Virus record (IMG/VR): IMGVR_UViG_3300014208_000033
Location: 43,669 to 107,668 of that record
Source of the DNA: a virus
Strand: one strand, 5' to 3'
Length of the DNA: 64,000 nt
The notes under the pieces are model-generated. The model ran no database searches. It worked only from the letters and a program-made list of their open reading frames with translations, and was not told the DNA's origin. Position 1 is the stretch's first letter. Every line of letters begins with the position of its first letter. A program made the position numbers and the translations under genes. Of this stretch, positions 3,347-61,284 are shown one piece after another.

Positions 3347-3604
3347 TTACGTCTTACGCTCTTTGTCATATTCTCTTATGACGAGCATCATTCTCTTACC
3401 GCACTTGGTACAGTCCTTACGCTCTATCTTCGTCATAAGAGTATCTAGGCTTTCCTTGAGGCTACGCACCTTACACTTACGGCACACATGAAAGTAGTCT
3501 ATGACGTAGCGCCGCTTGGTGATGTTTTTACGAATTTTCGGAGCGGCTGAAAGTGATGGAACAGTCTCAAACTTGGTGCGCTTCGTGAGTTTGTTCTTCT
3601 TCAA
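3347..3604 (-). CDS. Small zinc-ribbon protein
   Basis: CRKC...CTKC. Confidence 0.5.
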   Translation of the reverse strand: MKKNKLTKRTKFETVPSLSAAPKIRKNITKRRYVIDYFHVCRKCKVRSLKESLDTLMTKIERKDCTKCGKRMMLVIREYDKERKT

Positions 3605-4920
3605 GTAGTTGCCGCCTTAGCCATGAGCATTCCAGTTACAGCAGCAGAAACTATTGACCCCGAAAGTCCAGCACCGTCACCGATGAAGTAATACCCCTTA
3701 GCGATCTTCGATTCAAAGTTCTTATCAACGTCGAGCTTAAGAGCCTGGAATTTGATCTCAGGTCCGTAGAGTAAAGTGTTGTTACCATCGTTAATCCCAG
3801 GAGCAAGATGATCAAGACGAGAGAGGTAATCTTCGATAGCTGACGTGATGGGATGATGAAACCCTAAGTGAATATCTCCAGGTATGCAGTTCTTGAAAGT
3901 GCGCTTCACATTTGAGAGATTCAACCTGTAAGTGTTAGTCCTCTTACGGTTACGGAAATCCTCTAACCTCTGCACGATTGGAGAGCCACCACCAAGGATA
4001 TCAAACAGCTTCGCAATACCCTTTGCGTATTCGGTCGTGTTACTGCATGGCTTAGTAAGAGCCATCTTTACAAGAATAGCGAAATTACAGTTCTTGCTTT
4101 TCTTGTTAGCACAAGCATGACCGTTGACAAGATTGAATCCATCGTGACGTTCGTTAACAACAAAACCGAGAGGATTAACACAATAAGACCTGACGTTATA
4201 ATCACCGTACTGAGATGAAATCTTGAAGCAGTATTGGATATCAGTAAGTGGTTTGGTGATTTCATCAAGAGTCTCTAACCTGATTCCCATGTCAATAGGT
4301 CGATGAGTGCCAGTAACAAGATTATCGCATATTGCATAATCAATAGTCTTGAAACCGCACCGACCAACAGCATAGACTGTTTTCTTAGCGAATTCTCTAG
4401 TTTGAGTACACAATGAATTGTTGTTAAATAACATAGTAACACCAAGAGACTTCAACTCTTCTTCAGCGTTCTTCATGGTGTTGACCATCTTATCAGAACC
4501 AATGTGCATCTCATTGAACGTCGTGAGCTTCATCCCATACTTCAAGCAGTTATACGCAAGAGTTTCCTTGGCTTGGGATGACTCAACGATTGGAGTTACA
4601 CCAGACCATTCAATGAATTGGCGCTTCACTTCTGAGATACATTCGTTGATCGTTTTCTCATCAGCGTATTCGTAAAGGTCACAGCCACTCTGTGCTGAGA
4701 AGATAAGTTTACCGTCTGACTTACCACCAGCACCACCGAACCCGCTCAAGATGTTACAAGGGTTACACTTACATTCAGAATTTTCTGAACCCTTGTGGCA
4801 GATACGCTTATCGATTGGATTACCCTTGTCGATGATTATGACTGACTTACCGGCTCTTGCTAAGTGTAATGCAGCAAAGATACCAGCAGGACCAGCACCA
4901 ACGATACAATAGTCTTTCAT
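3601..4920 (-). CDS. FAD-dependent oxidoreductase (COG2509-like)
   Basis: N-terminal VGAGPAG Rossmann motif, GFGGAGGKSDGK, C-terminal IGDGAGLSGSIVSAA. Confidence 0.85.
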   Translation of the reverse strand: MKDYCIVGAGPAGIFAALHLARAGKSVIIIDKGNPIDKRICHKGSENSECKCNPCNILSGFGGAGGKSDGKLIFSAQSGCDLYEYADEKTINECISEVKRQFIEWSGVTPIVESSQAKETLAYNCLKYGMKLTTFNEMHIGSDKMVNTMKNAEEELKSLGVTMLFNNNSLCTQTREFAKKTVYAVGRCGFKTIDYAICDNLVTGTHRPIDMGIRLETLDEITKPLTDIQYCFKISSQYGDYNVRSYCVNPLGFVVNERHDGFNLVNGHACANKKSKNCNFAILVKMALTKPCSNTTEYAKGIAKLFDILGGGSPIVQRLEDFRNRKRTNTYRLNLSNVKRTFKNCIPGDIHLGFHHPITSAIEDYLSRLDHLAPGINDGNNTLLYGPEIKFQALKLDVDKNFESKIAKGYYFIGDGAGLSGSIVSAAVTGMLMAKAATT

Positions 4921-5323: not shown

Positions 5324-6154
5324 TCATTTGCTTCCATCACATGTCTGTCTCGGGAACAACTCAGGGTATTTCTTCTTCATCTTTATGTTAGCGTTTCGCC
5401 AGTAATCCTCGGCGTTATTCGGCAAGTCATTAGCAGTAACATGCTTTGTGTGCCATATGAAATTACTCTGATCTATCCAGACACCATAACCCTTCTCACC
5501 AGCCCGATAACAATAGTCGATATCTTCACCTGAGAGTGGGAACTCTTTGTCATCGAGTAACCCAACCTCTTTCAGACAATCGTTGCTGATGAACATAGCA
5601 AATCCTGTAATCCATAACACCCTACGAGGGATTACTTTGTTCATTCCCCACGAATACCCAAAGCACTCCTGCATAGCCGTTCGTGTCTGCATCTTCGTGA
5701 GGTCTTTAGCGTCACAGATATGTGTCTGCTGCAAGCCAGCAGCCCGATTAGTCATCGGCCCAACTATCCCAACCTTTGCGTATCGCTTGATGATGTTATA
5801 CTGCTTGACGATCTTGGTTAAGAAGTGGTCATGAACAATTACGTCGTTGTTCAGTAACAACACATCTTCGTTAGTAACTTCTTTGAGAACTTTGTTATTA
5901 CCCTTAGCGAACATCAAGTTCTCTTCGCTACGGATAACCTCTACATTATACTGACGAGGTGGCATGTCAGTCAACTTAGTGTTGTAAGTGAACTTCTCTT
6001 TTGAACCGTTGTCAAGAATACTGAGTTGAACTTTGTTGTAGTACAAAGTGTTCTTGAGAAGTTCGTTGATAGCGAAGTGAAGTGAGTATAACATCTTGTC
6101 TGTATCTTCAAAGTGGTTGCAGACAAGAGTAATGATTTTGAGTCTGTTTGACAT
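5324..6154 (-). CDS. Glycosyltransferase family 2
   Basis: ILDNGS, NLMFAKGNN, LLLNND, EDIDYCYRA motifs. Confidence 0.9.
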   Translation of the reverse strand: MSNRLKIITLVCNHFEDTDKMLYSLHFAINELLKNTLYYNKVQLSILDNGSKEKFTYNTKLTDMPPRQYNVEVIRSEENLMFAKGNNKVLKEVTNEDVLLLNNDVIVHDHFLTKIVKQYNIIKRYAKVGIVGPMTNRAAGLQQTHICDAKDLTKMQTRTAMQECFGYSWGMNKVIPRRVLWITGFAMFISNDCLKEVGLLDDKEFPLSGEDIDYCYRAGEKGYGVWIDQSNFIWHTKHVTANDLPNNAEDYWRNANIKMKKKYPELFPRQTCDGSK

Positions 6155-6161
6155 GTTTTCC

Positions 6162-7055
6162 TTAGAGTAAAAAGTCGAATGAGAGTATAATGGACAGAAC
6201 TTTCTTTACTGTGTTGATTGTAATCTCTTCAATTGGAAGAAGGATATTCTTCTTTATGTTCTGCAACTGCTTAGGAAACCAAGCTTCAATTGGATTAGCG
6301 TTTTCCCATGTCTTATCGAATAGAAACACCGTAGGTGTCTTAGACAAGAAACCGATGTTCTTGAGTCCGTTATCGAAACAGAAGAAAATCTTAGCTTTGT
6401 CAATGATGGAGTTAACTTCAATTAGAGAAGTCTGACCACAAAGATTGATGAGTCTAAAACTCTTGAAGTTAAGTTTATCAAACTCTTCCTTCTTACCACC
6501 TAAGAAGAGTATTGGTAAGTCCGTTTCATGAAGAAGAATATTGATCAAGAGTTTGAACTTATCCTTTGACTTCTCATGTTGAAAACTCTTGTTAGAGTTA
6601 CCAGTGAGTGATACACAAATATACTCTTTGAATGGAAGATCAATTTCCTGAGTCTTAAGATGAATTGAAGTGTAGTCTATAGGATCATTGAGCTTAAGTA
6701 CATTATCAGCATCATGAATCTTTAACTCGTATTCGTCCTTGTAAACATGATTAAGTATCATGTCAGGTAAACGGTTAAAGAAATGGACACACTGTTCTTT
6801 CATCTTATCTGTGATGATGTTCTTGTTATTTGAAACGTCATCAAAGTCAATCTTGAGAATTCGTTGAACTTTGTGATTCAGACCAAGGATGAGATCAGTA
6901 AGTTCAAGAACCTTCTTAGGCTGTAACGGGCCTGAGTAGATTAAGTTCACCCCATCAAAAGTTGGGAACTCTTGATTGAGATATTGTTTCATTATCGGGA
7001 ACAGTATGAGGAGATCGCCTACTGCCCCTCGCATCCACACTATAGGATTATTCAT
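6162..7055 (-). CDS. Glycosyltransferase family 9 (heptosyltransferase-like)
   Basis: N-terminal GAVGDLL, LINLCGQTSL, DNGLKN, TPTVFLF motifs. Confidence 0.8.
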   Translation of the reverse strand: MNNPIVWMRGAVGDLLILFPIMKQYLNQEFPTFDGVNLIYSGPLQPKKVLELTDLILGLNHKVQRILKIDFDDVSNNKNIITDKMKEQCVHFFNRLPDMILNHVYKDEYELKIHDADNVLKLNDPIDYTSIHLKTQEIDLPFKEYICVSLTGNSNKSFQHEKSKDKFKLLINILLHETDLPILFLGGKKEEFDKLNFKSFRLINLCGQTSLIEVNSIIDKAKIFFCFDNGLKNIGFLSKTPTVFLFDKTWENANPIEAWFPKQLQNIKKNILLPIEEITINTVKKVLSIILSFDFLL

Positions 7056-7923
7056 GATCTAGAATATGTGTGTTATAAAACGACGATAAGAACATTTCAT
7101 CATCATGATATCTATCAGAAACTTCACAGAAAGAAGCAGAAGGTGTATCAATAATTCTAGGTGCTTCAGAAGGGTGATACTTCCAAGGTTCTTTTGAATT
7201 CGACATAACATAAGTCTTATACCACTGGAAATACCAATCAAGGTACTTAGAATAAGTCGGATGATCTTTTCGGATCTCACTGAAGAACAATGACTTCAAA
7301 AACACCTGATTATCATCAACGTAGCAGAAATGATCACAAAGAGGATGACCAATGATAGAAGCAGGACGTGAGTATTGCTCTTTCTCATTACCAATAGCGG
7401 GAGGTCGATGATCTAAGAAATTCCAATTCTCGTTAACCTTGAAAATCCTAGCAGGGTGATCTTCCCAAACCCCACCGTAAAGCCTCTTGTAATTAATCCA
7501 ATACTTATTCTGCTTGATTGGAGCGATGTTAGGCTGAACAGCCTTAACCATCTGCTTGATCTCTAACATCGCTTCATCGGTGTACCACTCGTCTGCATCA
7601 ATCTGCATGAGGTAATCCATGCCATCATAAGCAGCTTCAGCATATGCAGCTTGACACATCTCAAGCTTCTCTGAGAAGTACCCTTCGGTTAATTGCATAA
7701 TAGTGCATGTTCCACCTTCAAGATTTTTGTATGGCATAGTCTTAGGTTCAGTGTACTTAACCGGGACGACTATACCAAAATGATCATGAAGTGCTTTAAT
7801 CTGAGGCTCAACAAATCCATAGACGACATACCACTTATCAAAGTGTTTATGAAGGCGATTGTAATTTCTTGTGAACCACTCTATCGTAGCTGGATACACA
7901 AGTGAGAAAGCTGAGAACTTCAT
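7048..7923 (-). CDS. GT-A fold glycosyltransferase (GT2-like)
   Basis: DYLMQIDADEW DxD motif; RIFK segment. Confidence 0.7.
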   Translation of the reverse strand: MKFSAFSLVYPATIEWFTRNYNRLHKHFDKWYVVYGFVEPQIKALHDHFGIVVPVKYTEPKTMPYKNLEGGTCTIMQLTEGYFSEKLEMCQAAYAEAAYDGMDYLMQIDADEWYTDEAMLEIKQMVKAVQPNIAPIKQNKYWINYKRLYGGVWEDHPARIFKVNENWNFLDHRPPAIGNEKEQYSRPASIIGHPLCDHFCYVDDNQVFLKSLFFSEIRKDHPTYSKYLDWYFQWYKTYVMSNSKEPWKYHPSEAPRIIDTPSASFCEVSDRYHDDEMFLSSFYNTHILDHE

Positions 7924-8783
7924 ATCATATACCTTTCACAAGTACAACAGTGTTCGATGTGTTCTTGCTTAGTCATTCTATTTCGGATCTCATTCATTCT
8001 AACCCCATTGAAAGCTTCATAGATATTCCCATAGAAAGGAGCATCAAAGAAGTCTCCAAAGGTACACTTAGCATTCAAATCAGCACAGCACTTACCAACT
8101 TGCCAGTTAGAATACAGAACGAGTGTATTGAAAGGGAACGAACACTGTTTCGGGTACTGATAGTTACAATTATCAGTAGGTCCATTATCCCAATTATGAG
8201 TCTTACGAACATATGTTCGAGAATTGAGAAACATTATTTCATTATACGCTTGAATTAAATTCACATCTGGAACATCATACATTATTCCATTAGGAATGAT
8301 AGACTGAATAACGGTCTTAATGTTCTTAGACTCATACACTCTCTCGCAATGGTCCTTGATCCTAAGAGCTATATTTCCACGGTTCCTGATACCGCGCGTA
8401 AGCTCATAAGTATTCTCATCGTAACCGTCGAGAGAGAAGCTAATAGTGGTTACAGATTTGTCGTTAGGGAGCGACTTGAGGTGTTCCGAAAATTCGGAAC
8501 GCCACAGAGAGCCGTTAGTGTGAACTAAGCAGTTATAACCTAAGATGTTACAGATTGAAATGAACTTCAAGAAATCAGGATGGGTTGTAGGCTCACCAGA
8601 AAGAAACAGTCTAATCTCAGGAAGATTCTCAGGGTGCTCGATCTTATATCGCTCAAGCACCTCATGAAAAATCTCAGGGTCCATAAAATGAACTAGTCGC
8701 TTTTTCTCGTCACCACAGATACGGCAGTTGTAATTACAGCCGTTAGTGATCTCAAAGTTGACTACCTGTAACTGAGACTTCAC
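7920..8783 (-). CDS. Radical SAM protein with SPASM/twitch domain
   Basis: CNYNCRIC, SGEPT, HTNG, FSLDG; C-terminal C..PF...CC...CCTC. Confidence 0.9.
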   Translation of the reverse strand: MKSQLQVVNFEITNGCNYNCRICGDEKKRLVHFMDPEIFHEVLERYKIEHPENLPEIRLFLSGEPTTHPDFLKFISICNILGYNCLVHTNGSLWRSEFSEHLKSLPNDKSVTTISFSLDGYDENTYELTRGIRNRGNIALRIKDHCERVYESKNIKTVIQSIIPNGIMYDVPDVNLIQAYNEIMFLNSRTYVRKTHNWDNGPTDNCNYQYPKQCSFPFNTLVLYSNWQVGKCCADLNAKCTFGDFFDAPFYGNIYEAFNGVRMNEIRNRMTKQEHIEHCCTCERYMI

Positions 8784-9370
8784 AACTTCACCGCTTCAAT
8801 CCTGAAACAAGGCTCATCCTTTGCGTGATAGTCTGTTCCATCAGAGACGTTAGTGACCTTGAGATTAAGCTTTCCAAACATTTCGATGAGTTCCCACCGG
8901 CTGAATCCCCAGGTATGAACATCACCGATGTTACGGTCAAGTCCGTAGAAGTGCTTCTTCAAATTCCATGTAGCCTTAGTATCGTTGTAAGCGCATGCAT
9001 CATAATACTTATAGACCAACTTATCGAAATCAGGAACTTCGATAACAAGAGTTCCTCCTACCTTCAAGAACTTAATCCACTTGATCAGGATATCTTCAGT
9101 ACAGGTGTTGTACTGGCTCTGACAGTTGTTACGCGGGCGCCCAAGATGCTCAAGTGCATGATAAGACGAAATCTCATCAGCCACTTCATAGTCCCTCTGG
9201 AAGAACTTATAGAGGTTTTTGAGTGTAGTGATGTTGTCACAGAGGAAATAGTTAGGTGGCTTCATATCAGCCAACATAGGCTTAATGTCCACGTTCACAT
9301 AACCGTTCATGTAACAGGCACCAGAGCCGAAGTTAAACTTTCGCGGGACGGTTCGCAATAACTCGTTCAT
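8780..9370 (-). CDS. SAM-dependent methyltransferase (Methyltransf_11-like)
   Basis: NFGSG, YVNVD, HALEHL, LKVGG..IEVPD; start moved to MNELL. Confidence 0.8.
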   Translation of the reverse strand: MNELLRTVPRKFNFGSGACYMNGYVNVDIKPMLADMKPPNYFLCDNITTLKNLYKFFQRDYEVADEISSYHALEHLGRPRNNCQSQYNTCTEDILIKWIKFLKVGGTLVIEVPDFDKLVYKYYDACAYNDTKATWNLKKHFYGLDRNIGDVHTWGFSRWELIEMFGKLNLKVTNVSDGTDYHAKDEPCFRIEAVKL

Positions 9371-10151
9371 TTTTACCAAATCTCTCTTCAAACTCTTTTG
9401 ACCACTTATTGTAGAGTTTCTGCTTGTTACGCTCAAAGTCTTCCACTACTGTAATTCGGTTCTTCCTCTTGAAGTCATCGTAGAACGACAAGAAAATCGG
9501 AAACGACAAATAGTGAAAGTTCTTGTGGAAGTGAGTAAGGATATAATCCCAGTCAACCAATCGAGTGAACTGTTCATCAAATCTGATATCAGACTTAGAG
9601 AAGAAACACTGATTCAAGTCAATTCGATTACTCTGCAACTCAGCCTTAAAGTCCAGGTTAGGCTCAACCCTAAACCCAACGTGGAACAATCCTGGACTGT
9701 TGTGGTAATGCTTCTGCTGCCTGATAACAGCCTGCCCCACGCAAAGGAGGAGTCGTTGAGTAAGAGGCTCAAGCTGAGGATACTGCTTCATCAGCTTAAT
9801 GTGGTCAGTGACTTTCTTCAACGCCTCGATATGATACCAGTTATCACAGTCAAGGAACCCGACGTATGAGCCTGCAACATTCTCAAGGCCAACGTTCCTA
9901 CTGTAGCTCACACCTTTGCGTTTGTTGTTTACGATTATTCGGATTCTTGGATCAGCTAATGCTGCATGCATTTCATCTCTGAGACAACCCTGAGACTTTT
10001 TACCGTCAAAGATGATATTCCACATGAAGTTCGTGTGAGTCTGTGCAAGCATGTTCGTAACACAGACTTGAAAGAGTTCATGGTTTGGCTTGTATACAGG
10101 TGTGATGATAGTGATCTTATCATCTAAGTGTTGCTTAAGATCGACGATCAT
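9333..10151 (-). CDS. Glycosyltransferase family 2
   Basis: ITIITPVYKP, GVSYSRNVGL, FLDCD, DWDY motifs. Confidence 0.9.
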   Translation of the reverse strand: MIVDLKQHLDDKITIITPVYKPNHELFQVCVTNMLAQTHTNFMWNIIFDGKKSQGCLRDEMHAALADPRIRIIVNNKRKGVSYSRNVGLENVAGSYVGFLDCDNWYHIEALKKVTDHIKLMKQYPQLEPLTQRLLLCVGQAVIRQQKHYHNSPGLFHVGFRVEPNLDFKAELQSNRIDLNQCFFSKSDIRFDEQFTRLVDWDYILTHFHKNFHYLSFPIFLSFYDDFKRKNRITVVEDFERNKQKLYNKWSKEFEERFGKNERVIANRPAKV

Positions 10152-11367
10152 TTCGCTTCACAATTCCTTCCGCTGTGAAAAAGTATTTCTTGTCCTTGAG
10201 TGAGAGTTTGTGCTCTGAGATCATGTTAGTAAGTCTCTCAGCCTGGATAGAGTCTCTGATCTCACGCTCGTAGTCAGCCTTCTCATCCTCATCGATGTTA
10301 TAGCTGAACGTCTTACTTCGCTCACTGAGATGATTAAGCACACTCATCCACTTAGGAGCCATCTTGTTAATGTGATAATTTTCCATCACATATTTATAAG
10401 CAGCCTTGCCAACCTCAGTGATCTTTGAACGGTTTTCAATCAGCGACTCAAGAATACCAGGAAAATCCTCAATCTTATCAGCCAAGAAACCATTCTCACC
10501 ATTGACGATATCTTTGTTCCAAAGCTGACAATTAGAACCAACGAAACACCGCTTGAACATACCAGTCTCAAGGAACTTGATATTCGACTTGCACACCGAG
10601 AACTCATTTTCCACCAGCGGGGCAATGCAGATATCGAAGTCGAGACTGAACAGCATATCGTAGAAGTTGTTTGAGTTAACCCACGGGAACAACTGAACCA
10701 TTCCAGTTTTCATCAAATTCAGCGGAGCCCAACCAAGGAAACAGAAATCGACCTTATCGTAATACTTCTTAACTAGTGGAACAAGCAAGTCATCAAGGAC
10801 TTTCCAGTCCTCTTGATGGTGCATTCCACCCCACCAGCCGACAGAGATTTTTCGCTTAGAAATGAAAGAAGAACGCTGACTATCGATCTCAGATTCGCTA
10901 TGAGATTGATATATCGCGTTCGGTATAACAACTATGTTTTCAGTTCTACCAGTAGCCTTAGTCACAGCCTCTTTCAACTGAGGTGTCGTAGTGGTGATGA
11001 TCTCAATCTTAGACAGCGCGAGCTTATGAGTATCGATAGGGTCTTTCTTGGAAGTCCTCTTATACTCAAGCAGATCCCAATAGCAAGGGTTATGTGACGG
11101 CAGGGCGAAGAAGTTATCATCAATATCAACGTATGAAATTGACTTAAACCTATTCACTCTGTTCATCATCTCATCGCCCATTGGACGCTGGAACCCAATC
11201 ACATCAAATTTGTGGTTCTCCCTACCAAACCACTCATAGTCAAGAATAACATCAGAGCCACATGCATCAATCTGATCTAAGTCATTCAAGTGGGCGAGAG
11301 GAATATATCCACGGTAAAAATAACACCCACCGTTATCAGGAGCCAGAAACAGAGGTCTTGGTTTCAT
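10135..11367 (-). CDS. Glycosyltransferase family 4 (GT-B)
   Basis: GCYFYR, DIDD, VIPNAI, DICIAPL...KSNIKFLE, ENGFL; start moved to MKPRP. Confidence 0.85.
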   Translation of the reverse strand: MKPRPLFLAPDNGGCYFYRGYIPLAHLNDLDQIDACGSDVILDYEWFGRENHKFDVIGFQRPMGDEMMNRVNRFKSISYVDIDDNFFALPSHNPCYWDLLEYKRTSKKDPIDTHKLALSKIEIITTTTPQLKEAVTKATGRTENIVVIPNAIYQSHSESEIDSQRSSFISKRKISVGWWGGMHHQEDWKVLDDLLVPLVKKYYDKVDFCFLGWAPLNLMKTGMVQLFPWVNSNNFYDMLFSLDFDICIAPLVENEFSVCKSNIKFLETGMFKRCFVGSNCQLWNKDIVNGENGFLADKIEDFPGILESLIENRSKITEVGKAAYKYVMENYHINKMAPKWMSVLNHLSERSKTFSYNIDEDEKADYEREIRDSIQAERLTNMISEHKLSLKDKKYFFTAEGIVKRNDRRS

Positions 11368-11552: not shown

Positions 11553-11629
11553 TGGTGGGCGTAGCAGGGTTCAAACCTGCAACTAAACGGGTAGAGGCCG
11601 TTTTCTCTATTCATTTGAGTTATACGCCC
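11553..11629 (-). tRNA. tRNA-Arg(UCU), non-canonical
   Basis: Cloverleaf: acceptor GGGCGTA/TACGCCC-A-CCA, anticodon arm AACGG-CCTCTAC-CCGTT, T-arm GCAGG-TTTGAAC-CCTGC; C33 and no D-loop GG. Confidence 0.75.
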
Positions 11630-11638
11630 AGTAAATTG

Positions 11639-12226
11639 TTACTTCTTCAACTTCAAGAAAATCTCAGTAGGGATGATTCGGCTCAACTGCTTGAAGTCAG
11701 CCTTATGAGTCTCAAAGGTCGGGAGTTCATTCAGAGGCTCGTACTTCTCACCACAGAGATTCTTGATAGCAGTAAGATAGCCGATGTGCTTATCATCAGC
11801 ATCATTTCGAGCCTGAAGAGCAAAAGCGTAACGCCAGTAATACTGCTCACCAATACTCATGAACTCAGCAGCAAGGCTAATTGCTCGACTATTGCTATTA
11901 ACGATCTTGTTGATCCTATCCTTCAGATTAGATAGCACTATTTCATTAAGCAGCCTCGACTTCTTCATCGCATCATATCCACGCTGAAGGTCAATGATGA
12001 AATGAATAGTGCTAGGAAGTCCAGCAATCCTACCGTAACGACGAGTCCTAGAAGTGAAGAGCCCAAAGTAGAAACGACTCTCTTGATTGCGATTATTCGT
12101 AGTACCGAACTCATCATCACTGTCAATGGGCTTGAAGTAGTCTCCACGAAGTTGAACCTTATAGAAGTCATCATCATTACTACGAAGCTTTTCAAGCTTA
12201 TTCATGATCCTACCACTGTACAGCAT
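11639..12226 (-). CDS. Hypothetical protein coupled to the PurA-like gene
   Basis: 195-aa ORF immediately downstream of the PurA-like gene; no motif recognised. Confidence 0.6.
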   Translation of the reverse strand: MLYSGRIMNKLEKLRSNDDDFYKVQLRGDYFKPIDSDDEFGTTNNRNQESRFYFGLFTSRTRRYGRIAGLPSTIHFIIDLQRGYDAMKKSRLLNEIVLSNLKDRINKIVNSNSRAISLAAEFMSIGEQYYWRYAFALQARNDADDKHIGYLTAIKNLCGEKYEPLNELPTFETHKADFKQLSRIIPTEIFLKLKK

Positions 12227-12239
12227 ATCTAACCTTTCT

Positions 12240-13388
12240 TTACATTGTTCTGATGGTTCCGTCAGTTGCTACACCAATGAGAGCACCTTTAGTAAGTTCA
12301 TAAGTTCCAGTACCCCAAGTAACAGGAACAAATCCAGATTCGATCATCTGGTGTCGTTCAGGACCACTACCAAACAAAACACAGGGGGTAGTTAGGTTGT
12401 TCTTCATAAAAGAAGAAAAAGCTTCAAAATTCTTAATTAAGTGCCCACCCCACTTGGAATAAACCCTAAATCCATCAATCTTTTCAATCATATCAGTTTT
12501 AGTGAAGCAAAGACCTGTGACTCCAGCCAACTCAATGACATACTTCAACTCTTCAATATCCAACCACCCAAGCACCATCGGTCGATTATTTGGATCACCG
12601 TATTCGTACTCCATTCCAATAGTACGAATAGTTTCAATTGTCTTACTAAATTCAACTGGTCGGCCCATTCGACCTGCACCAGTACGGGTGTTATATATCT
12701 TGCTAATTCCAAGAATCTCAAGATCACGAAGTTCTTGCCTCATACCAAATGAAGTAAGAACATTGGCAGGCATTGTTCGTTGACTAACAAAAGGATAATC
12801 ACCGTGAACAAGATCAAGCTGAACACTCTGAGAACCTTCAAAGAGAACTCGTTTACCGTTGGAAATGAGATCATTAACAAGATCGAAAGTATTTACAATG
12901 AACACACCTTCAATAGAACTAAGAGTTTCATTTCCAAGAACAGTCATAGCAGTTCGATTAGCTCGTCGTGCAGCGGCGGGGCCAATACCTTTACCAGTAG
13001 TTAAAAGGCCGTCGTTAGGATGATCAGCCTTGATATCTTCATCGGTAATTACGATACACTTCTTATCGATGTAGAGATCAAACTTCACATCAGGATTAGT
13101 CTTACGAACGTAATCAATCTCGATTTCGAGAGTCTTGGGATTTACATAGCACTCAGGTCCAATGATGCACATCTTACCAGAAGCACAACCAGAAGGAAGG
13201 TGATTAAGTTCAAGCCGAATCTTATCATTGATCTTGATTCCGTGTCCAGCATTAGGACCACCGGTAAATCGAACAACTGCATCGTAGTTCTTGTTAGAAG
13301 CAAGATAGTCAATAACTTTACCCTTGCCTTCGTCTCCATGTGTAATACCAACGACACAGAGGCATTGACGATCAAACATCTTCTTCAC
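12240..13388 (-). CDS. purA: Adenylosuccinate synthetase (PurA)-like ligase, divergent
   Basis: GDEGKGK P-loop, GGPNAGH, TTGKGIGP, FEGSQ...GDYPFV, GWLD, TKTD; aspartate-binding loop altered. Confidence 0.85.
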   Translation of the reverse strand: MKKMFDRQCLCVVGITHGDEGKGKVIDYLASNKNYDAVVRFTGGPNAGHGIKINDKIRLELNHLPSGCASGKMCIIGPECYVNPKTLEIEIDYVRKTNPDVKFDLYIDKKCIVITDEDIKADHPNDGLLTTGKGIGPAAARRANRTAMTVLGNETLSSIEGVFIVNTFDLVNDLISNGKRVLFEGSQSVQLDLVHGDYPFVSQRTMPANVLTSFGMRQELRDLEILGISKIYNTRTGAGRMGRPVEFSKTIETIRTIGMEYEYGDPNNRPMVLGWLDIEELKYVIELAGVTGLCFTKTDMIEKIDGFRVYSKWGGHLIKNFEAFSSFMKNNLTTPCVLFGSGPERHQMIESGFVPVTWGTGTYELTKGALIGVATDGTIRTM

Positions 13389-13620
13389 CTTTCACTGTAA
13401 TTGAGTTAGCAACGTTAGGAAGAACTGACATTCTAGTTGACATTGAAACGATCTCGATGCCTTTATTGTATTTATCAATCTTCAAATTGAAATTTCCAAA
13501 CTTAGTCTTTATGATGAAGTTATCAGATATGACAACATAACTTTCTTGTGGAAGTGATTTATAGTAACCAACCTTAGACTTCTTCAACTTACATCTTATT
13601 TCTTCAAAGTAAATCTTCAT
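13372..13620 (-). CDS. Hypothetical protein
   Basis: AGGAG RBS; overlaps the PurA-like start. Confidence 0.6.
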   Translation of the reverse strand: MKIYFEEIRCKLKKSKVGYYKSLPQESYVVISDNFIIKTKFGNFNLKIDKYNKGIEIVSMSTRMSVLPNVANSITVKGEEDV

Positions 13621-14032: not shown

Positions 14033-14061
14033 ATAATACTCTAATCTTCAACTGGAGCCAA
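14033..14061 (-). promoter_or_regulatory. Sigma70-like promoter for the tRNA/ncRNA/modification operon
   Basis: TTGGCT-17 nt-TATTAT on the - strand; same GTATTAT -10 recurs at 19256, 49713 and 49775. Confidence 0.55.
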
Positions 14062-14466
14062 CAATATCTTATGGTTGAATTTGATAGTCCCATCTTCATC
14101 TATTACTATAAGAAGTTTGTTCTTCTTCTTAGCCCAGTTTATCGAGTTGAGTGTTCCATGAGACTTCAAATCCCAAAAGGCTACACATATGTCACAGTCA
14201 TCTACTATCTTTTCGTTTCTGATGAAGCCGGCGGCCTTACCTAATGTCTTCCAATCTGGCTTGTAAATCTTAGTTGGAACAGAACACATACTAGCTATGT
14301 TCTCAGCACACTTATCAACACCGTTAGCACCACCCGAAACAACAATACAGTTCTCAGGAAGATGTTTAACGAAGTTCTCCACTAACTTGAGATTACCGTA
14401 ATCCCTAGACCCGACTATCGCTATTCGGAGTTTCTTTGGAGACTTGTTTTTCATAATGATACCCAC
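14041..14466 (-). CDS. SLOG-family (YspA/DUF2493-like) protein
   Basis: IAIVGSRDY, VVSGGANGVD, AAGFIRN, AFWD..SHGT. Confidence 0.85.
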   Translation of the reverse strand: MGIIMKNKSPKKLRIAIVGSRDYGNLKLVENFVKHLPENCIVVSGGANGVDKCAENIASMCSVPTKIYKPDWKTLGKAAGFIRNEKIVDDCDICVAFWDLKSHGTLNSINWAKKKNKLLIVIDEDGTIKFNHKILLAPVED

Positions 14467-39313: not shown

Positions 39314-42300
39314 TTAACCACACTTACTCCAACCACATTTGGTACATTTCATACAACCTTCGGTTACTGTAGCATCAGCTTTACACTCAGGGCACTTAGG
39401 CTTGTCTGCATTGACAACATACTGAGAGAGACAGTTAGCTATGTTCACAGGAACCGAAAGCAATGACTGATTACGAACTGAAGTAAGCTGCTTGACGATC
39501 AACTCAGGTGAAACATTATGCCTTAACGCAAGAGAGGAGAGGCGACAGAGAGCTTCAGTTAGAACAAGTATTTCGCCTGTTGCTGTAGATGGAACTGAGA
39601 AAACTTCAACGGGTTTATCGTTATGCTTGTTCACGGTGATATAGAGTTTACCTTCGGTGGTTCTGACTTTGTAAGTGTCACCCGAAAGAACATGTGGGCG
39701 CTCGTTCAGATTTTTCGGAATCTCGGTAGCGCCGGTCGAGAGCACTTGACCCTTGCGAGAGCCGTCACGATAAACAGTTGTGCCCTTACAGTGAAGATCG
39801 TTGGCTAACATGAATGCTTTAGCTACGTCATCTTCGGTTGCAGAGTTCAATAAATTTGTGGTTTTACTCACCCCAAGATTAGTGAATTCTTGGAAGGCTG
39901 CTTGCATTTTAACATGCTGCTCCCAGGGTACTTGATTAGCTGTGACGAAGAGTTCAGCTTCATTAGAAAGTAGATACTTTGTGTCTACACCGTTCTTGAA
40001 TGTATAGTCATAGATTTCATCTTTAGTGGCCGAAGTCTGCATCTCTTCAACTAACTTCTGGAACAACGGATGAATTTCATTCATCTCTTGATCTGCTTGA
40101 CGACGCTTCATCACATACGCAAAGTTAGGCTCGATACCGGAACTGCAACCGGCGATGATAGAGAGTGTGCCAGTCGGTGCTATTGCGGTAACGGTTTGGT
40201 TCTGGTAATTCCTCAATACCCCGTAGTTAGTAGCTTCAGTGTTGATGAAGCTCATAAGGTCTTTAGCTACAGAGAGAGCGTGAGGGCTATTGTAGTTAAT
40301 GCCAAGCTTGATGAGAGCATCAGCCCAGCCCATTATACCAAGGCCGACCTTACGGTTTTTCTTGCAGATAGTTTCAATTTTCTTGAGAGGATATTTGTTC
40401 TTGTCAATCATGCGGTTGAGGAAATCAATTGCCGTATGAATGACTTTCTCCAGTTTGTCTTTATTGAAAGGTCTGTCTTTAAGTATTCGGCCTTCTACAT
40501 CAACGAAATTAGATACATTAATTGAGCCCAAGCAACAGGCTTCATAAGGCAGTAGAGGAGACTCGCCGCAGTTGCCAGTAACAAAACCATCCAGGACCAA
40601 CGTGTTAAACTCAATTCCTGTTGCACAGTACACGTCCTCATACTTACCTGTATCTGTGATCGATTCGATAGTGTCTTTGTAACCGCTCTTATCTTGGGTT
40701 TTTTCAGTGAGAGTCTTAGCAAAGACCGAGCGCATTAAGTTAAGGTCTTTTTGGAAGAAACTGATATTCTTGAGCCATGTATGAATAGGTCGTCCAGGTC
40801 CAATGAATAAGTCATGTGAATCTGAAGCTATGGTAACTCCAGAGATTTGTTTCTTGTTATAGCAGGCGGGTTTAATCTCGCCAAAGACTCCCATGCAAAG
40901 GAGTCTCTTCTGAATGTCTTTCAATAAACTGAGTGACTTGAAGTTAGTGAGCCAGAAGCAGTTCTTCCGCTTAAAGACATTTCCATTTACCTTGAAGAGC
41001 ATCTGGAAAAATCCGCGAAGAACGCTTATCTCACAGTTCCAAAGTATCTCAGGTAACTTCGTATCAGTGATAGGATTTACCTTGAGAACACTGAACAAGA
41101 AATCAGTTATCTCAGCAGAGTAGAAACCGTTCTTGTATGGATGAGTCCTAGGACGATAGATATTAGCGTACAGTAACTCATCAAATGCCGAGTCTTTCTT
41201 AGCGAGATTAGAGTCACAGAACTTAGAATGAACATACTGTAACCCTTTGAGTAATGATCGATAGGTTGAAGCAAACTCTGACTTACGAATCTTCTTAACG
41301 TCAACAGTGAATGTCAACTCACCAGCATCATTCTTTCTGAACCACAAATTAGGCTGAGTGTAGAGTGAAGCTAAGAAATGACCGAACTTGAGATTGTTCT
41401 TAGAATCTTCATTATCAAGTCGATGAGGCTTAACCCCCATCGGAGTATCAGTAGTGTAGATCATAAGCATCTCACCAACTGATAACTCTTCTAACTTCTT
41501 CTCAGAGTATGAGAATGTTCTTCTATCGCTTTTAGTTGTCTCATTAGTCTGCTTCACAGTGAAGAACTTATGATACTCAGTAGCCTCAATCTCAAGACCT
41601 GACTTCATCGTGATCTTATATATCGGAGCATTCTCCGCTGTCCGTCTAACCTTAGTGATGTTATGATGGTGATTATTATCAGTGACTCTCTTATCCATTA
41701 TAGCTGAGTAAATACTGTACGGATAGCTAGGTCCAGCAGCATCCTTCATAGTAGGACAGTGACCTGGGAACATTATCCTCGTAGACCCAACAACGCAAGG
41801 ATTGGTGCTCTCGATTTTACCTTGCTCTGGTGTCGGGTTATGACGGTTGATCTCATCTAAGAATATAAGGCCGGGCTCACCGTTGAGCCAAGCGTTCTTT
41901 ACGATTTTTCTGAATATCTCCTTTGCGGGAAGAGTCTGAACGACTTCACCGTTCTTCGGATTGATAAGCTCCCATGGGAGATCATTCTTAACAGCGTTCA
42001 TGAACTTATCTGAAACACCAACTGATATGTTAAAGTTGTTTAATGACTTCTCATTAGTCTTACAATCAATGAATTCCAAAACGTCAGGGTGACTCACTTC
42101 GAGGATGCCCATTAAAGCCCCCCGGCGCACCCCCCCTTGCTTGCAAACGTCCGTTATGGTGTTGAACACCTGCATGAACGTGACTGGCCCTGAACTTATT
42201 CCATTTGTCGAGTGGACCTTATCATTTCTCGGTCGTAACTTACTGAAGTTAATACCAACTCCACCACCTGATTTGAATATCAAAGCACATTCTTTAGCTG

Positions 42301-42574
42301 TATCAAATATGCTAGCCATCGAATCTTCAATTGGCATAACATAACATGCGAATAGGTTTCCTAACTTAGTCCCTGCTCCGGTGAAGGTGACTGAATTTGG
42401 CAAGAAATCTAATTCATTCATGATAGTAAAGAACTTCTGCTTCTCTTCGTCAGTGTCACCTAAGAAGTTGGCAACTCGCTTAAAAAGCATCTCAGGTGTT
42501 TCAATGATATTTCCGTTACCATCACGAAGAAGGTAACGCTTCTCAAGCACTTTTATAGCATTATCGGAAAGCAT
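39314..42574 (-). CDS. nrdJ: Class II (B12-dependent) ribonucleotide reductase with intein
   Basis: VLEKRYL, FLPNS, GGGVG, QGGVRRGA, GEPG, TNP^CGE, CCLGSIN, IAPTGT, C-terminal TSCPD-like domain and Zn ribbon. Confidence 0.92.
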   Translation of the reverse strand: MLSDNAIKVLEKRYLLRDGNGNIIETPEMLFKRVANFLGDTDEEKQKFFTIMNELDFLPNSVTFTGAGTKLGNLFACYVMPIEDSMASIFDTAKECALIFKSGGGVGINFSKLRPRNDKVHSTNGISSGPVTFMQVFNTITDVCKQGGVRRGALMGILEVSHPDVLEFIDCKTNEKSLNNFNISVGVSDKFMNAVKNDLPWELINPKNGEVVQTLPAKEIFRKIVKNAWLNGEPGLIFLDEINRHNPTPEQGKIESTNPCVVGSTRIMFPGHCPTMKDAAGPSYPYSIYSAIMDKRVTDNNHHHNITKVRRTAENAPIYKITMKSGLEIEATEYHKFFTVKQTNETTKSDRRTFSYSEKKLEELSVGEMLMIYTTDTPMGVKPHRLDNEDSKNNLKFGHFLASLYTQPNLWFRKNDAGELTFTVDVKKIRKSEFASTYRSLLKGLQYVHSKFCDSNLAKKDSAFDELLYANIYRPRTHPYKNGFYSAEITDFLFSVLKVNPITDTKLPEILWNCEISVLRGFFQMLFKVNGNVFKRKNCFWLTNFKSLSLLKDIQKRLLCMGVFGEIKPACYNKKQISGVTIASDSHDLFIGPGRPIHTWLKNISFFQKDLNLMRSVFAKTLTEKTQDKSGYKDTIESITDTGKYEDVYCATGIEFNTLVLDGFVTGNCGESPLLPYEACCLGSINVSNFVDVEGRILKDRPFNKDKLEKVIHTAIDFLNRMIDKNKYPLKKIETICKKNRKVGLGIMGWADALIKLGINYNSPHALSVAKDLMSFINTEATNYGVLRNYQNQTVTAIAPTGTLSIIAGCSSGIEPNFAYVMKRRQADQEMNEIHPLFQKLVEEMQTSATKDEIYDYTFKNGVDTKYLLSNEAELFVTANQVPWEQHVKMQAAFQEFTNLGVSKTTNLLNSATEDDVAKAFMLANDLHCKGTTVYRDGSRKGQVLSTGATEIPKNLNERPHVLSGDTYKVRTTEGKLYITVNKHNDKPVEVFSVPSTATGEILVLTEALCRLSSLALRHNVSPELIVKQLTSVRNQSLLSVPVNIANCLSQYVVNADKPKCPECKADATVTEGCMKCTKCGWSKCG
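40571..41797 (-). mobile_element. Intein (409 aa) at the RNR NP/CGE active site
   Basis: Starts CVVGSTRI, block B ATEYHKF, block F/G EDVYC...GFVTGN followed by extein Cys; degenerate LAGLIDADG LRGFFQMLFKVNG. Confidence 0.9.
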
Positions 42575-60735: not shown

Positions 60736-61284
60736 TTAACTGATCTTCTTTACGAGAATTACTTTACCAGCACGAAACTTACCATCGGTATGAAACGGAA
60801 CTATGATTCCGGCTGCTTCTGACCAAGGTATCATGCACTCCCACAATTCAGCATCTTTGTATTGACTATCGCACCATTCCTTAGTTCCGACATTTACACC
60901 ACATGCACATTCAGTTCCACGATCAGGATTAACTACTTCTTCAAGAATTGCATTCTCTTCGGCTTTCGGCCAGTAAGAAGGCCATTCTTTTGTGGTCTTA
61001 CCAATTCGTTTGTAACAAATGATCCCAAGATCATTCGCTGGGAGGTTATTCTTAATCCATTCACAAGGATTAAGGATTCCCTTTGCGTTACTCAGATTAG
61101 CGCCATACAGATTAGCGCCACTCAGATCAGCGCTACGCAGATCAGCGCCACTCAGATTAGCGCCACTCAGATTAGCGCCATACAGATTAGCGCCACTCAG
61201 ATTAGCGCCATACAGATTAGCGTTTTGAAGTGAACCACCAAAAGAGACGATTTCGAGAACGATAGAACGAAGTTCGGAATTCAT
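60736..61284 (-). CDS. Pentapeptide-repeat protein
   Basis: A(N/D)L(S/Y/R)(G/S) repeats encoded by 15-bp tandem repeats at ~61093-61222. Confidence 0.9.

Follow-up and report, generated by a model that had tools for sequence, protein, structure and literature searches.

A 64,000-nucleotide stretch of DNA from an uncultured large phage (the window), the right-hand 64 kb of an IMG/VR record of 107,668 bp that was estimated to be about 71% complete, was analysed around a gene of the PurA (adenylosuccinate synthetase, AdSS) family. The interval 11639-13388 comprises two open reading frames (ORFs), the PurA-like gene and a 195-amino-acid (aa) orphan, and every gene of the locus is carried by the minus strand (Table 1). 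An AAGGTG ribosome-binding site precedes the ATG that was taken as the start of the PurA-like gene; the alternative start, GTG 13388, would give an ORF of 382 aa (12240-13388). The stop codon of an 82-aa ORF overlaps this ATG (ATGTTTGA), which suggests translational coupling.

The PurA-like protein was assigned to Pfam family PF00709 (E 1e-63), and was 30-45% identical to canonical PurA. In a PDB search, solved AdSS (PurA) structures were matched at E 4e-39, whereas PurZ structures were matched at E 5e-9. An AlphaFold2 (AF2) model of the protein adopted the AdSS fold with a mean predicted local distance difference test (pLDDT) of 87.8, its top Foldseek matches were all AdSS (E 1e-26), and the best template modelling (TM) score normalised to target length (0.86-0.87) was obtained with the short Pyrococcus horikoshii enzyme (5K7X). 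The motifs GDEGKGK, NAGH, TTGKGIGP and TKTD, which had been listed as kept in an earlier reading of this DNA made from the letters alone (the initial annotation), were all seen, on the minus strand, together with EGSQS and GSGP. In an alignment of 270 sequences, the protein was identical to the family at D13, K16, N38, H41, T129, R143, Q224, R303, K331 and D333 (E. coli numbering, here and for the loop below). The protein thus has the AdSS fold, and it retains the machinery for the first half-reaction, the phosphorylation of O6 of inosine monophosphate (IMP) by guanosine triphosphate (GTP).

The loop that precedes GWLD is where the protein departs from its relatives. It was compared in an alignment of the PurA-like protein, E. 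coli PurA and 268 nearest family representatives, collected by searching two sets of 5.8 billion and 1.84 billion proteins. The segment reads D-P-N-N-R-P-M-V, and relative to E. coli PurA it carries T300P, T301N, G302N, R304P, R305M and R306V, with R303 kept, so that the exchange of T300/T301 for P/N and of R305 for M around an unchanged R303, as first described in the initial annotation, was reproduced. The loop has its normal length. Residue T42, beside the catalytic His41, was also altered (T42G), and two new arginines, R240 and R243, are found in the adjacent GAGRMGRP loop. A change at V273 is not special to the PurA-like protein, the sister clade already having S there. The GPFPTE motif, the loss of which had also been pointed out, is indeed absent, but this loop differs greatly from one viral PurA to another and its loss is therefore not a distinguishing feature.

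Among the 268 other sequences, R305 was kept in all 268, T301 and R303 in 266 each, and G302 in 256. TTGRxR was retained wherever the loop was readable in 80 viral PurAs from IMG/VR, and T-x-R-x-R was also found in 63 loops from JGI metagenomes. Among all loops read, PNNRPMV occurred in two proteins only, the PurA-like protein and a 94% identical homolog, P0001; neither the single-protein IMG/VR scan nor the JGI metagenome profile scan (best identity 39-42%) detected further loop variants. A double frameshift as the origin of the loop was rejected, since no other frame encodes TTGRxR. Judged from these comparisons, the rewriting of the loop goes far beyond chance variation.

According to the paper on S-2L PurZ, the tip of this loop is strictly conserved and touches aspartate, and R303 contacts both the 2'-O of IMP and aspartate (PMC8342488). 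The E. coli R303L crystal, judged from PDB titles, is without hadacidin. In the UniProt/HAMAP annotation (MF_00011), R305 is a contact for both GTP and aspartate. From the altered residues we infer that free L-aspartate is probably no longer bound in the canonical way. Retention of R303 and TKTD points to the substrates of PurA, IMP and GTP, and away from the deoxynucleotide and adenosine triphosphate (ATP) of PurZ.

With PurA (EC 6.3.4.4; 1ADE/1CG0, 5K7X) the protein has in common the fold, the P-loop Asp13, His41, the IMP contacts N38, T129, R143, Q224 and R303, and the TKxD and SxGP motifs; it differs by T300P, T301N, G302N, R305M, R306V and T42G, by a score below the family cut-off, and by a tail of about 30 aa. 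It scored 200.5 bits with the NCBIfam purA model NF002223 (equivalog cut-off 402 bits), 189 bits with TIGR00184 (cut-off 395.6) and 90.5 bits with the PurZ model NF038379 (cut-off 300). With PurZ and PurZ0 of the 2-aminoadenine pathway (6FM1, 7ODX, 7VF6) it shares the status of a phage-borne PurA paralogue of changed specificity. The changes are the reverse of one another, however: in PurZ the P-loop Asp is replaced by Ser, the guanine motif is lost, deoxyguanosine monophosphate (dGMP) and ATP are used and the aspartate loop is kept (PMC8342488). A PurZ-type comparison protein from phage BUCT555 has the Ser-containing P-loop GSTGKG and the loop VTGRVRR, with T-x-R-x-R intact, while the PurA-like protein retains GDEGKGK. 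As to the companions of PurZ, DatZ (HD family), MazZ (MazG family) and DpoZ (PolA family), neither HD nor MazG gave a hit in the 107.7 kb, and the DNA polymerase encoded by the phage is of family B; the record being about 71% complete, the absence of an HD-type dATPase or of MazG is not proven. The view that the protein is neither a canonical PurA nor a PurZ was borne out, since its aspartate loop is rewritten, its P-loop Asp and its GTP and IMP residues are kept, and the equivalog cut-offs of both families are missed.

In a maximum-likelihood tree, the PurA-like protein and P0001 formed a pair inside an eight-member clade of viral PurAs with 99% support in the Shimodaira-Hasegawa-like approximate likelihood-ratio test (SH-aLRT). 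The other six members, the 'SQRC' group (P0002, P0003, P0004, P0121, P0122 and P0124), all have loops of the TTGRPRR type, and the rewritten loop is confined to the pair. Clade and pair share the markers YP.V-SQR(C/T), S/T at position 273, A at 137, E at 71 and an N-terminal FD.QC. The pair thus appears to have arisen inside a clade of canonical viral PurAs, and the stem from which it springs measures 1.63 substitutions per site. Over this length, 41 of the 47 columns that are near-invariant in the family were kept, and three of the six that changed belong to the aspartate loop. When the two phages are compared, identity is about 96% in the core of the PurA-like protein and 81% in the neighboring orphan gene; the C-terminal 26 residues also diverged much faster than the core, and the tail as a whole is about 62% identical to that of P0001. 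Such a pattern is that of an enzyme under constraint whose pocket has been re-tooled, not that of a decaying gene. The tail (residues 349-382 in the 382-aa numbering) is specific to the lineage, and short beta-strands were predicted for it at low confidence.

The gene order differs between the pair and its sister clade. On L086 (JGI contig Ga0190359_1022733, 1-2771), a DNA methyltransferase gene is followed by the gene of P0121, a PurA with a canonical loop, and then by a short PurB gene (354 aa), the start of which overlaps the PurA stop, so that the two genes form a compact viral unit. At least one member of the clade is thus coupled to PurB, whereas in the window the orphan follows the PurA-like gene and PurB lies 36 kb away. 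Because PurA and PurB are coupled on L086, the ancestral role of the clade was very probably the synthesis of adenylosuccinate that feeds a lyase.

The absence of a PurB homolog noted in the initial annotation holds for the window, but a canonical PurB is encoded elsewhere in the genome, on the plus strand, some 23.4 kb ahead of the first position of the window. It is preceded by a large ORF of the virion module, possibly the portal, and is followed by more virion-module ORFs. The protein passes the TIGR00928 equivalog cut-off (378.9 vs 326.2 bits), aligns over its full length with the adenylosuccinate lyase of Thermotoga maritima (E 3e-98), and has His68 and His141 as well as aligned HDV, TSSD, THG and GSSCMSHKKNP..E (signature SS.M.HK.NP...E). 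Its best bacterial matches (37-46% identity) are scattered over many phyla and give no clue to the host. Comparison with 80 bacterial PurBs showed 14 departures over 85 near-invariant columns, P269S and W301C among them. In a second phage PurB, 26 of these columns are changed, which makes the 14 changes ordinary phage divergence, and co-adaptation of PurB to a new substrate was rejected for lack of a specific signal. PurB was present in none of 29 other viral records that carry PurA.

The 195-aa orphan had no family match in Pfam, PHROG, NCBIfam or PADLOC; nor did the PADLOC defense and anti-defense models match the PurA-like protein. The sole known homolog of the orphan is P0270 (81% identity), located on a contig of 31,247 bp. 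P0001 originates from a contig of the same length, so that P0270 and P0001 are probably encoded on one contig, on which the PurA-like/orphan pair is conserved. The most conserved, N-terminal segment of the orphan, which is invariant between the two homologs, contains GLFTSRTRRYG, matching the canonical loop positions G298..T301.R303.R305.R/K306..G308. A six-frame translation of the 107.7-kb genome gave a single hit to this signature, that in the orphan, and the signature arose in 7 of 200,000 shuffles of the orphan protein. The top weak alignments of the orphan to PurA by BLASTP, hhalign and hidden Markov model (HMM) were colinear on the region of the aspartate loop, TKxD and SxGP, but none was significant: the hhalign probability was below 1%, and the HMM scores ranked 19th and 73rd of 5,002 against shuffles. 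Descent of the orphan from a duplicated C-terminal part of PurA is therefore a lead and not a result. The AF2 model of the orphan was unusable (pLDDT 40; low-confidence, mostly helices), and a feature search of a protein atlas was uninformative (score 0.75).

A second, weak look-alike in the orphan, EFGTTNNR (residues 39-46), resembles EYGDPNNR of the PurA-like protein. The possibility that the orphan is a decayed PurB was rejected: a single pairwise BLASTP comparison with the L086 PurB gave E 0.008, hhalign gave nothing, and no BLASTP match to the phage's own PurB was obtained. Nor is the pair joined by a vWA partner, VWA_2 having given no hit in the genome.

Table 1. Positions of the PurA-like locus and of other features, in window coordinates unless stated otherwise.
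Feature	Position	Strand	Remark
PurA-family gene	12240..13379	-	379 aa from ATG 13379, the likely start and also the public gene call
P-loop GDEGKGK	13317..13337	-	catalytic Asp kept; motif and alignment
Rewritten aspartate-loop codons, G264-D277 (GDPNNRPMVLGWLD)	12558..12599	-	alignment to family
C-terminal tail	12240-12341	-	about 30 aa
195-aa orphan gene	11639..12226	-	13 nt after PurA-like stop; own ribosome-binding site
GLFTSRTRRYG in orphan, residues 55-65	12032..12064	-	match to G..T.R.R[RK].G
82-aa ORF	13372..13620	-	stop codon overlaps PurA-like start
SLOG/YAcAr DprA-like protein	14041-14466	-	141 aa
tRNA-Arg(TCT)	11553..11629	-	between orphan gene and glycosyltransferase cluster
Glycan-type cluster	5324..11367	-	adjoins PurA-like pair; no link shown
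GT1-like	10135-11367	-	cluster
GT2	9333-10151	-	cluster
Methyltransferase-like protein	8780-9436	-	cluster
Radical SAM/SPASM	7920-8783	-	cluster
GT2-like candidate	7048-7923	-	language-model lead only
GT9	6162-7055	-	cluster
Second GT2	5324-6154	-	cluster
FAD-dependent protein	3601-4920	-	closes the cluster
Class II-type ribonucleotide reductase	39314-42574	-	1086 aa
Pentapeptide-repeat protein	60736-61284	-	182 aa
PurB	G000:C1:20235-21524	+	outside window; about 36 kb from PurA-like gene

On its upstream side, the PurA-like gene is accompanied by genes for tRNA-Ser, tRNA-Thr and a small SLOG/DprA-like protein. The latter, located just upstream of the tRNA pair, showed weak PADLOC similarity to the defense-system proteins ShosA and PsyrA. 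Further upstream lies a replication and nucleotide module with primase, ThyX, DnaB, a RecA-like protein, the family B polymerase, an SNF2 helicase and a ribonucleotide reductase of class II, the sequence of which contains an intein and closes with a TSCPD domain. A pentapeptide-repeat protein (PF00805, E 6e-27) was found among small early genes. No match of the virus to known phages was found at the DNA level, and a third copy of a tRNA-linked RNA after tRNA-Arg was not supported.

On its downstream side, the PurA-like pair had been described in the initial annotation as heading a glycosyltransferase operon, with the 195-aa gene followed by five glycosyltransferases. The gene is where it was said to be and four of the transferases have HMM support, but the fifth (7048-7923) is a lead from a language model only. 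The operon itself was not upheld: between the pair and the first transferase lie the tRNA-Arg gene and a non-coding spacer of about 185 bases, and this transferase has no homolog on the 31-kb sister contig, where both the PurA-like gene and the orphan are present. Its closest relative anywhere (44% identical) is found on a different contig. Glycan clusters typically contain GT9, GT2, radical SAM and flavin adenine dinucleotide (FAD) enzymes, and from its gene content this cluster looks like a glycan synthesis locus. The FAD-dependent protein at its end combines an HI0933-like Rossmann domain with FAD-depend_C.

Taken together, the sequence and the structure model give about an even chance that the PurA-like protein, a phage enzyme of the AdSS family, has a re-tooled nucleophile site and works as a ligase of the IMP/GTP type. 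In such an enzyme, GTP would phosphorylate O6 of IMP to form 6-phosphoryl-IMP, as in the first half-reaction of PurA. If canonical binding of L-aspartate has been lost, the second half-reaction would proceed with a different amine or amino acid, yielding an N6-substituted adenosine monophosphate (AMP) and not adenylosuccinate; alternatively, the third substrate would be delivered in a new way, possibly with the help of the co-inherited 195-aa partner. The enzyme very probably descends from a viral PurA clade that works with PurB. It would serve nucleotide metabolism, belonging to the replication module and acting on the pool of ribonucleotides, and would not take part with the glycosyltransferases in making a DNA base. 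The most far-reaching reading, given a little less than even chances, is that of an IMP:amine ligase driven by GTP in which another nucleophile has taken the place of L-aspartate, or, as a variant, that of a two-protein enzyme to which the partner supplies an acid-binding T-x-R-x-R-R loop.

Several points weigh against a change of nucleophile. The new arginines R240 and R243 could in principle stand in for R305 and R306, and the variant is known from two sequences only, a number from which conservation of the loop is not measurable. A canonical PurB in the same genome fits the ordinary conversion of IMP to AMP via adenylosuccinate, and the sister-clade PurA P0121 is translationally coupled to PurB on L086; the ancestral lyase-feeding role that this implies is the main argument that the PurA-like enzyme might still use aspartate. 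It would then remain an adenylosuccinate synthetase in which R269, N267 and the new R240/R243 form a rewired pocket for L-aspartate, and jointly with the phage PurB it would raise the flux from IMP to AMP for an A+T-rich (60%) genome. The retention of all catalytic, IMP and GTP residues along with R303 would agree with this, as would the finding that PurA is a very common auxiliary gene of phages, with at least 558 matches in IMG/VR. Every other PurA or PurZ examined, however, retains T301 and R305, even the very divergent short viral forms, and the residues that replace them here are expected to be unable to do the same job. Moreover, as PurB is lacking in all 29 other PurA-bearing viral records, it does not routinely accompany PurA, and its presence here is no proof that the two are paired. 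We consider continued use of aspartate unlikely, although it deserves serious attention. Improbable by comparison is a split aspartate site, in which the orphan would be a diverged C-terminal fragment of PurA or the donor of a T-x-R-x-R-R loop, and would, in a heteromeric enzyme, contribute to the binding of aspartate or of a different acidic substrate. The adjacency and co-inheritance of the two genes, the invariance and genome-wide uniqueness of the signature with its rarity in shuffles, and the colinearity of the weak hits speak for such an arrangement; the insignificance of all alignments and the mostly helical low-confidence model speak against it. A loop supplied in trans was kept as a low-probability lead because the motif was noticed after the fact, and because the loop of the PurA-like protein, being of normal length, would fill the same space.

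The pathway proposed in the initial annotation, in which an N6-substituted purine nucleotide would enter the phage DNA and be glycosylated there by the enzymes encoded downstream, was not supported by the analysis and is given very little weight. It could draw on the rewritten loop and on five probable glycosyltransferases downstream on the same strand. Yet R303, the contact to the 2'-OH, and the guanine motif are kept, no pool-cleaning enzyme of the HD or MazG type was found in the 107.7 kb, and the polymerase belongs to family B and is not specialized. The tRNA gene and the 185-nt spacer split the two units, the first glycosyltransferase is missing from the sister contig, and the enzymes of the cluster are those of glycan loci; there is no positive evidence for a DNA base that is modified and glycosylated. 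Just as improbable is the idea that the protein is no longer a ligase, being instead a regulator or sink that binds GTP and IMP, or a gene at an early stage of decay. Loss of the otherwise invariant R305, a residue annotated as a contact for GTP as well as aspartate, could abolish turnover, but the changes cluster in a single pocket, a long branch has left 41 of the 47 near-invariant positions intact, and the core is strongly conserved between the two phages.

The PurA-like finding lends no present support to a new hypermodified DNA base, and its interest lies in nucleotide metabolism. Since T301, R303 and R305 are kept across several hundred PurA and PurZ loops, the natural, constrained variant, in which this loop and no other part of the active site is rewritten, represents a ready-made experiment on the choice of nucleophile by the scaffold. 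Should aspartate still be used, the protein would reveal an unexpected alternative mode of binding it, and with PurB the phage would carry a rare complete branch from IMP to AMP. If the nucleophile has been switched, or if the partner supplies the acid-binding loop, the PurA scaffold would have undergone a change in specificity for its third substrate, complementing the switch of nucleotide in PurZ. Formation of a new N6-substituted AMP, if true, would add a reaction to phage nucleotide metabolism, and the enzyme might be a possible biocatalyst for N6-modified purine nucleotides.

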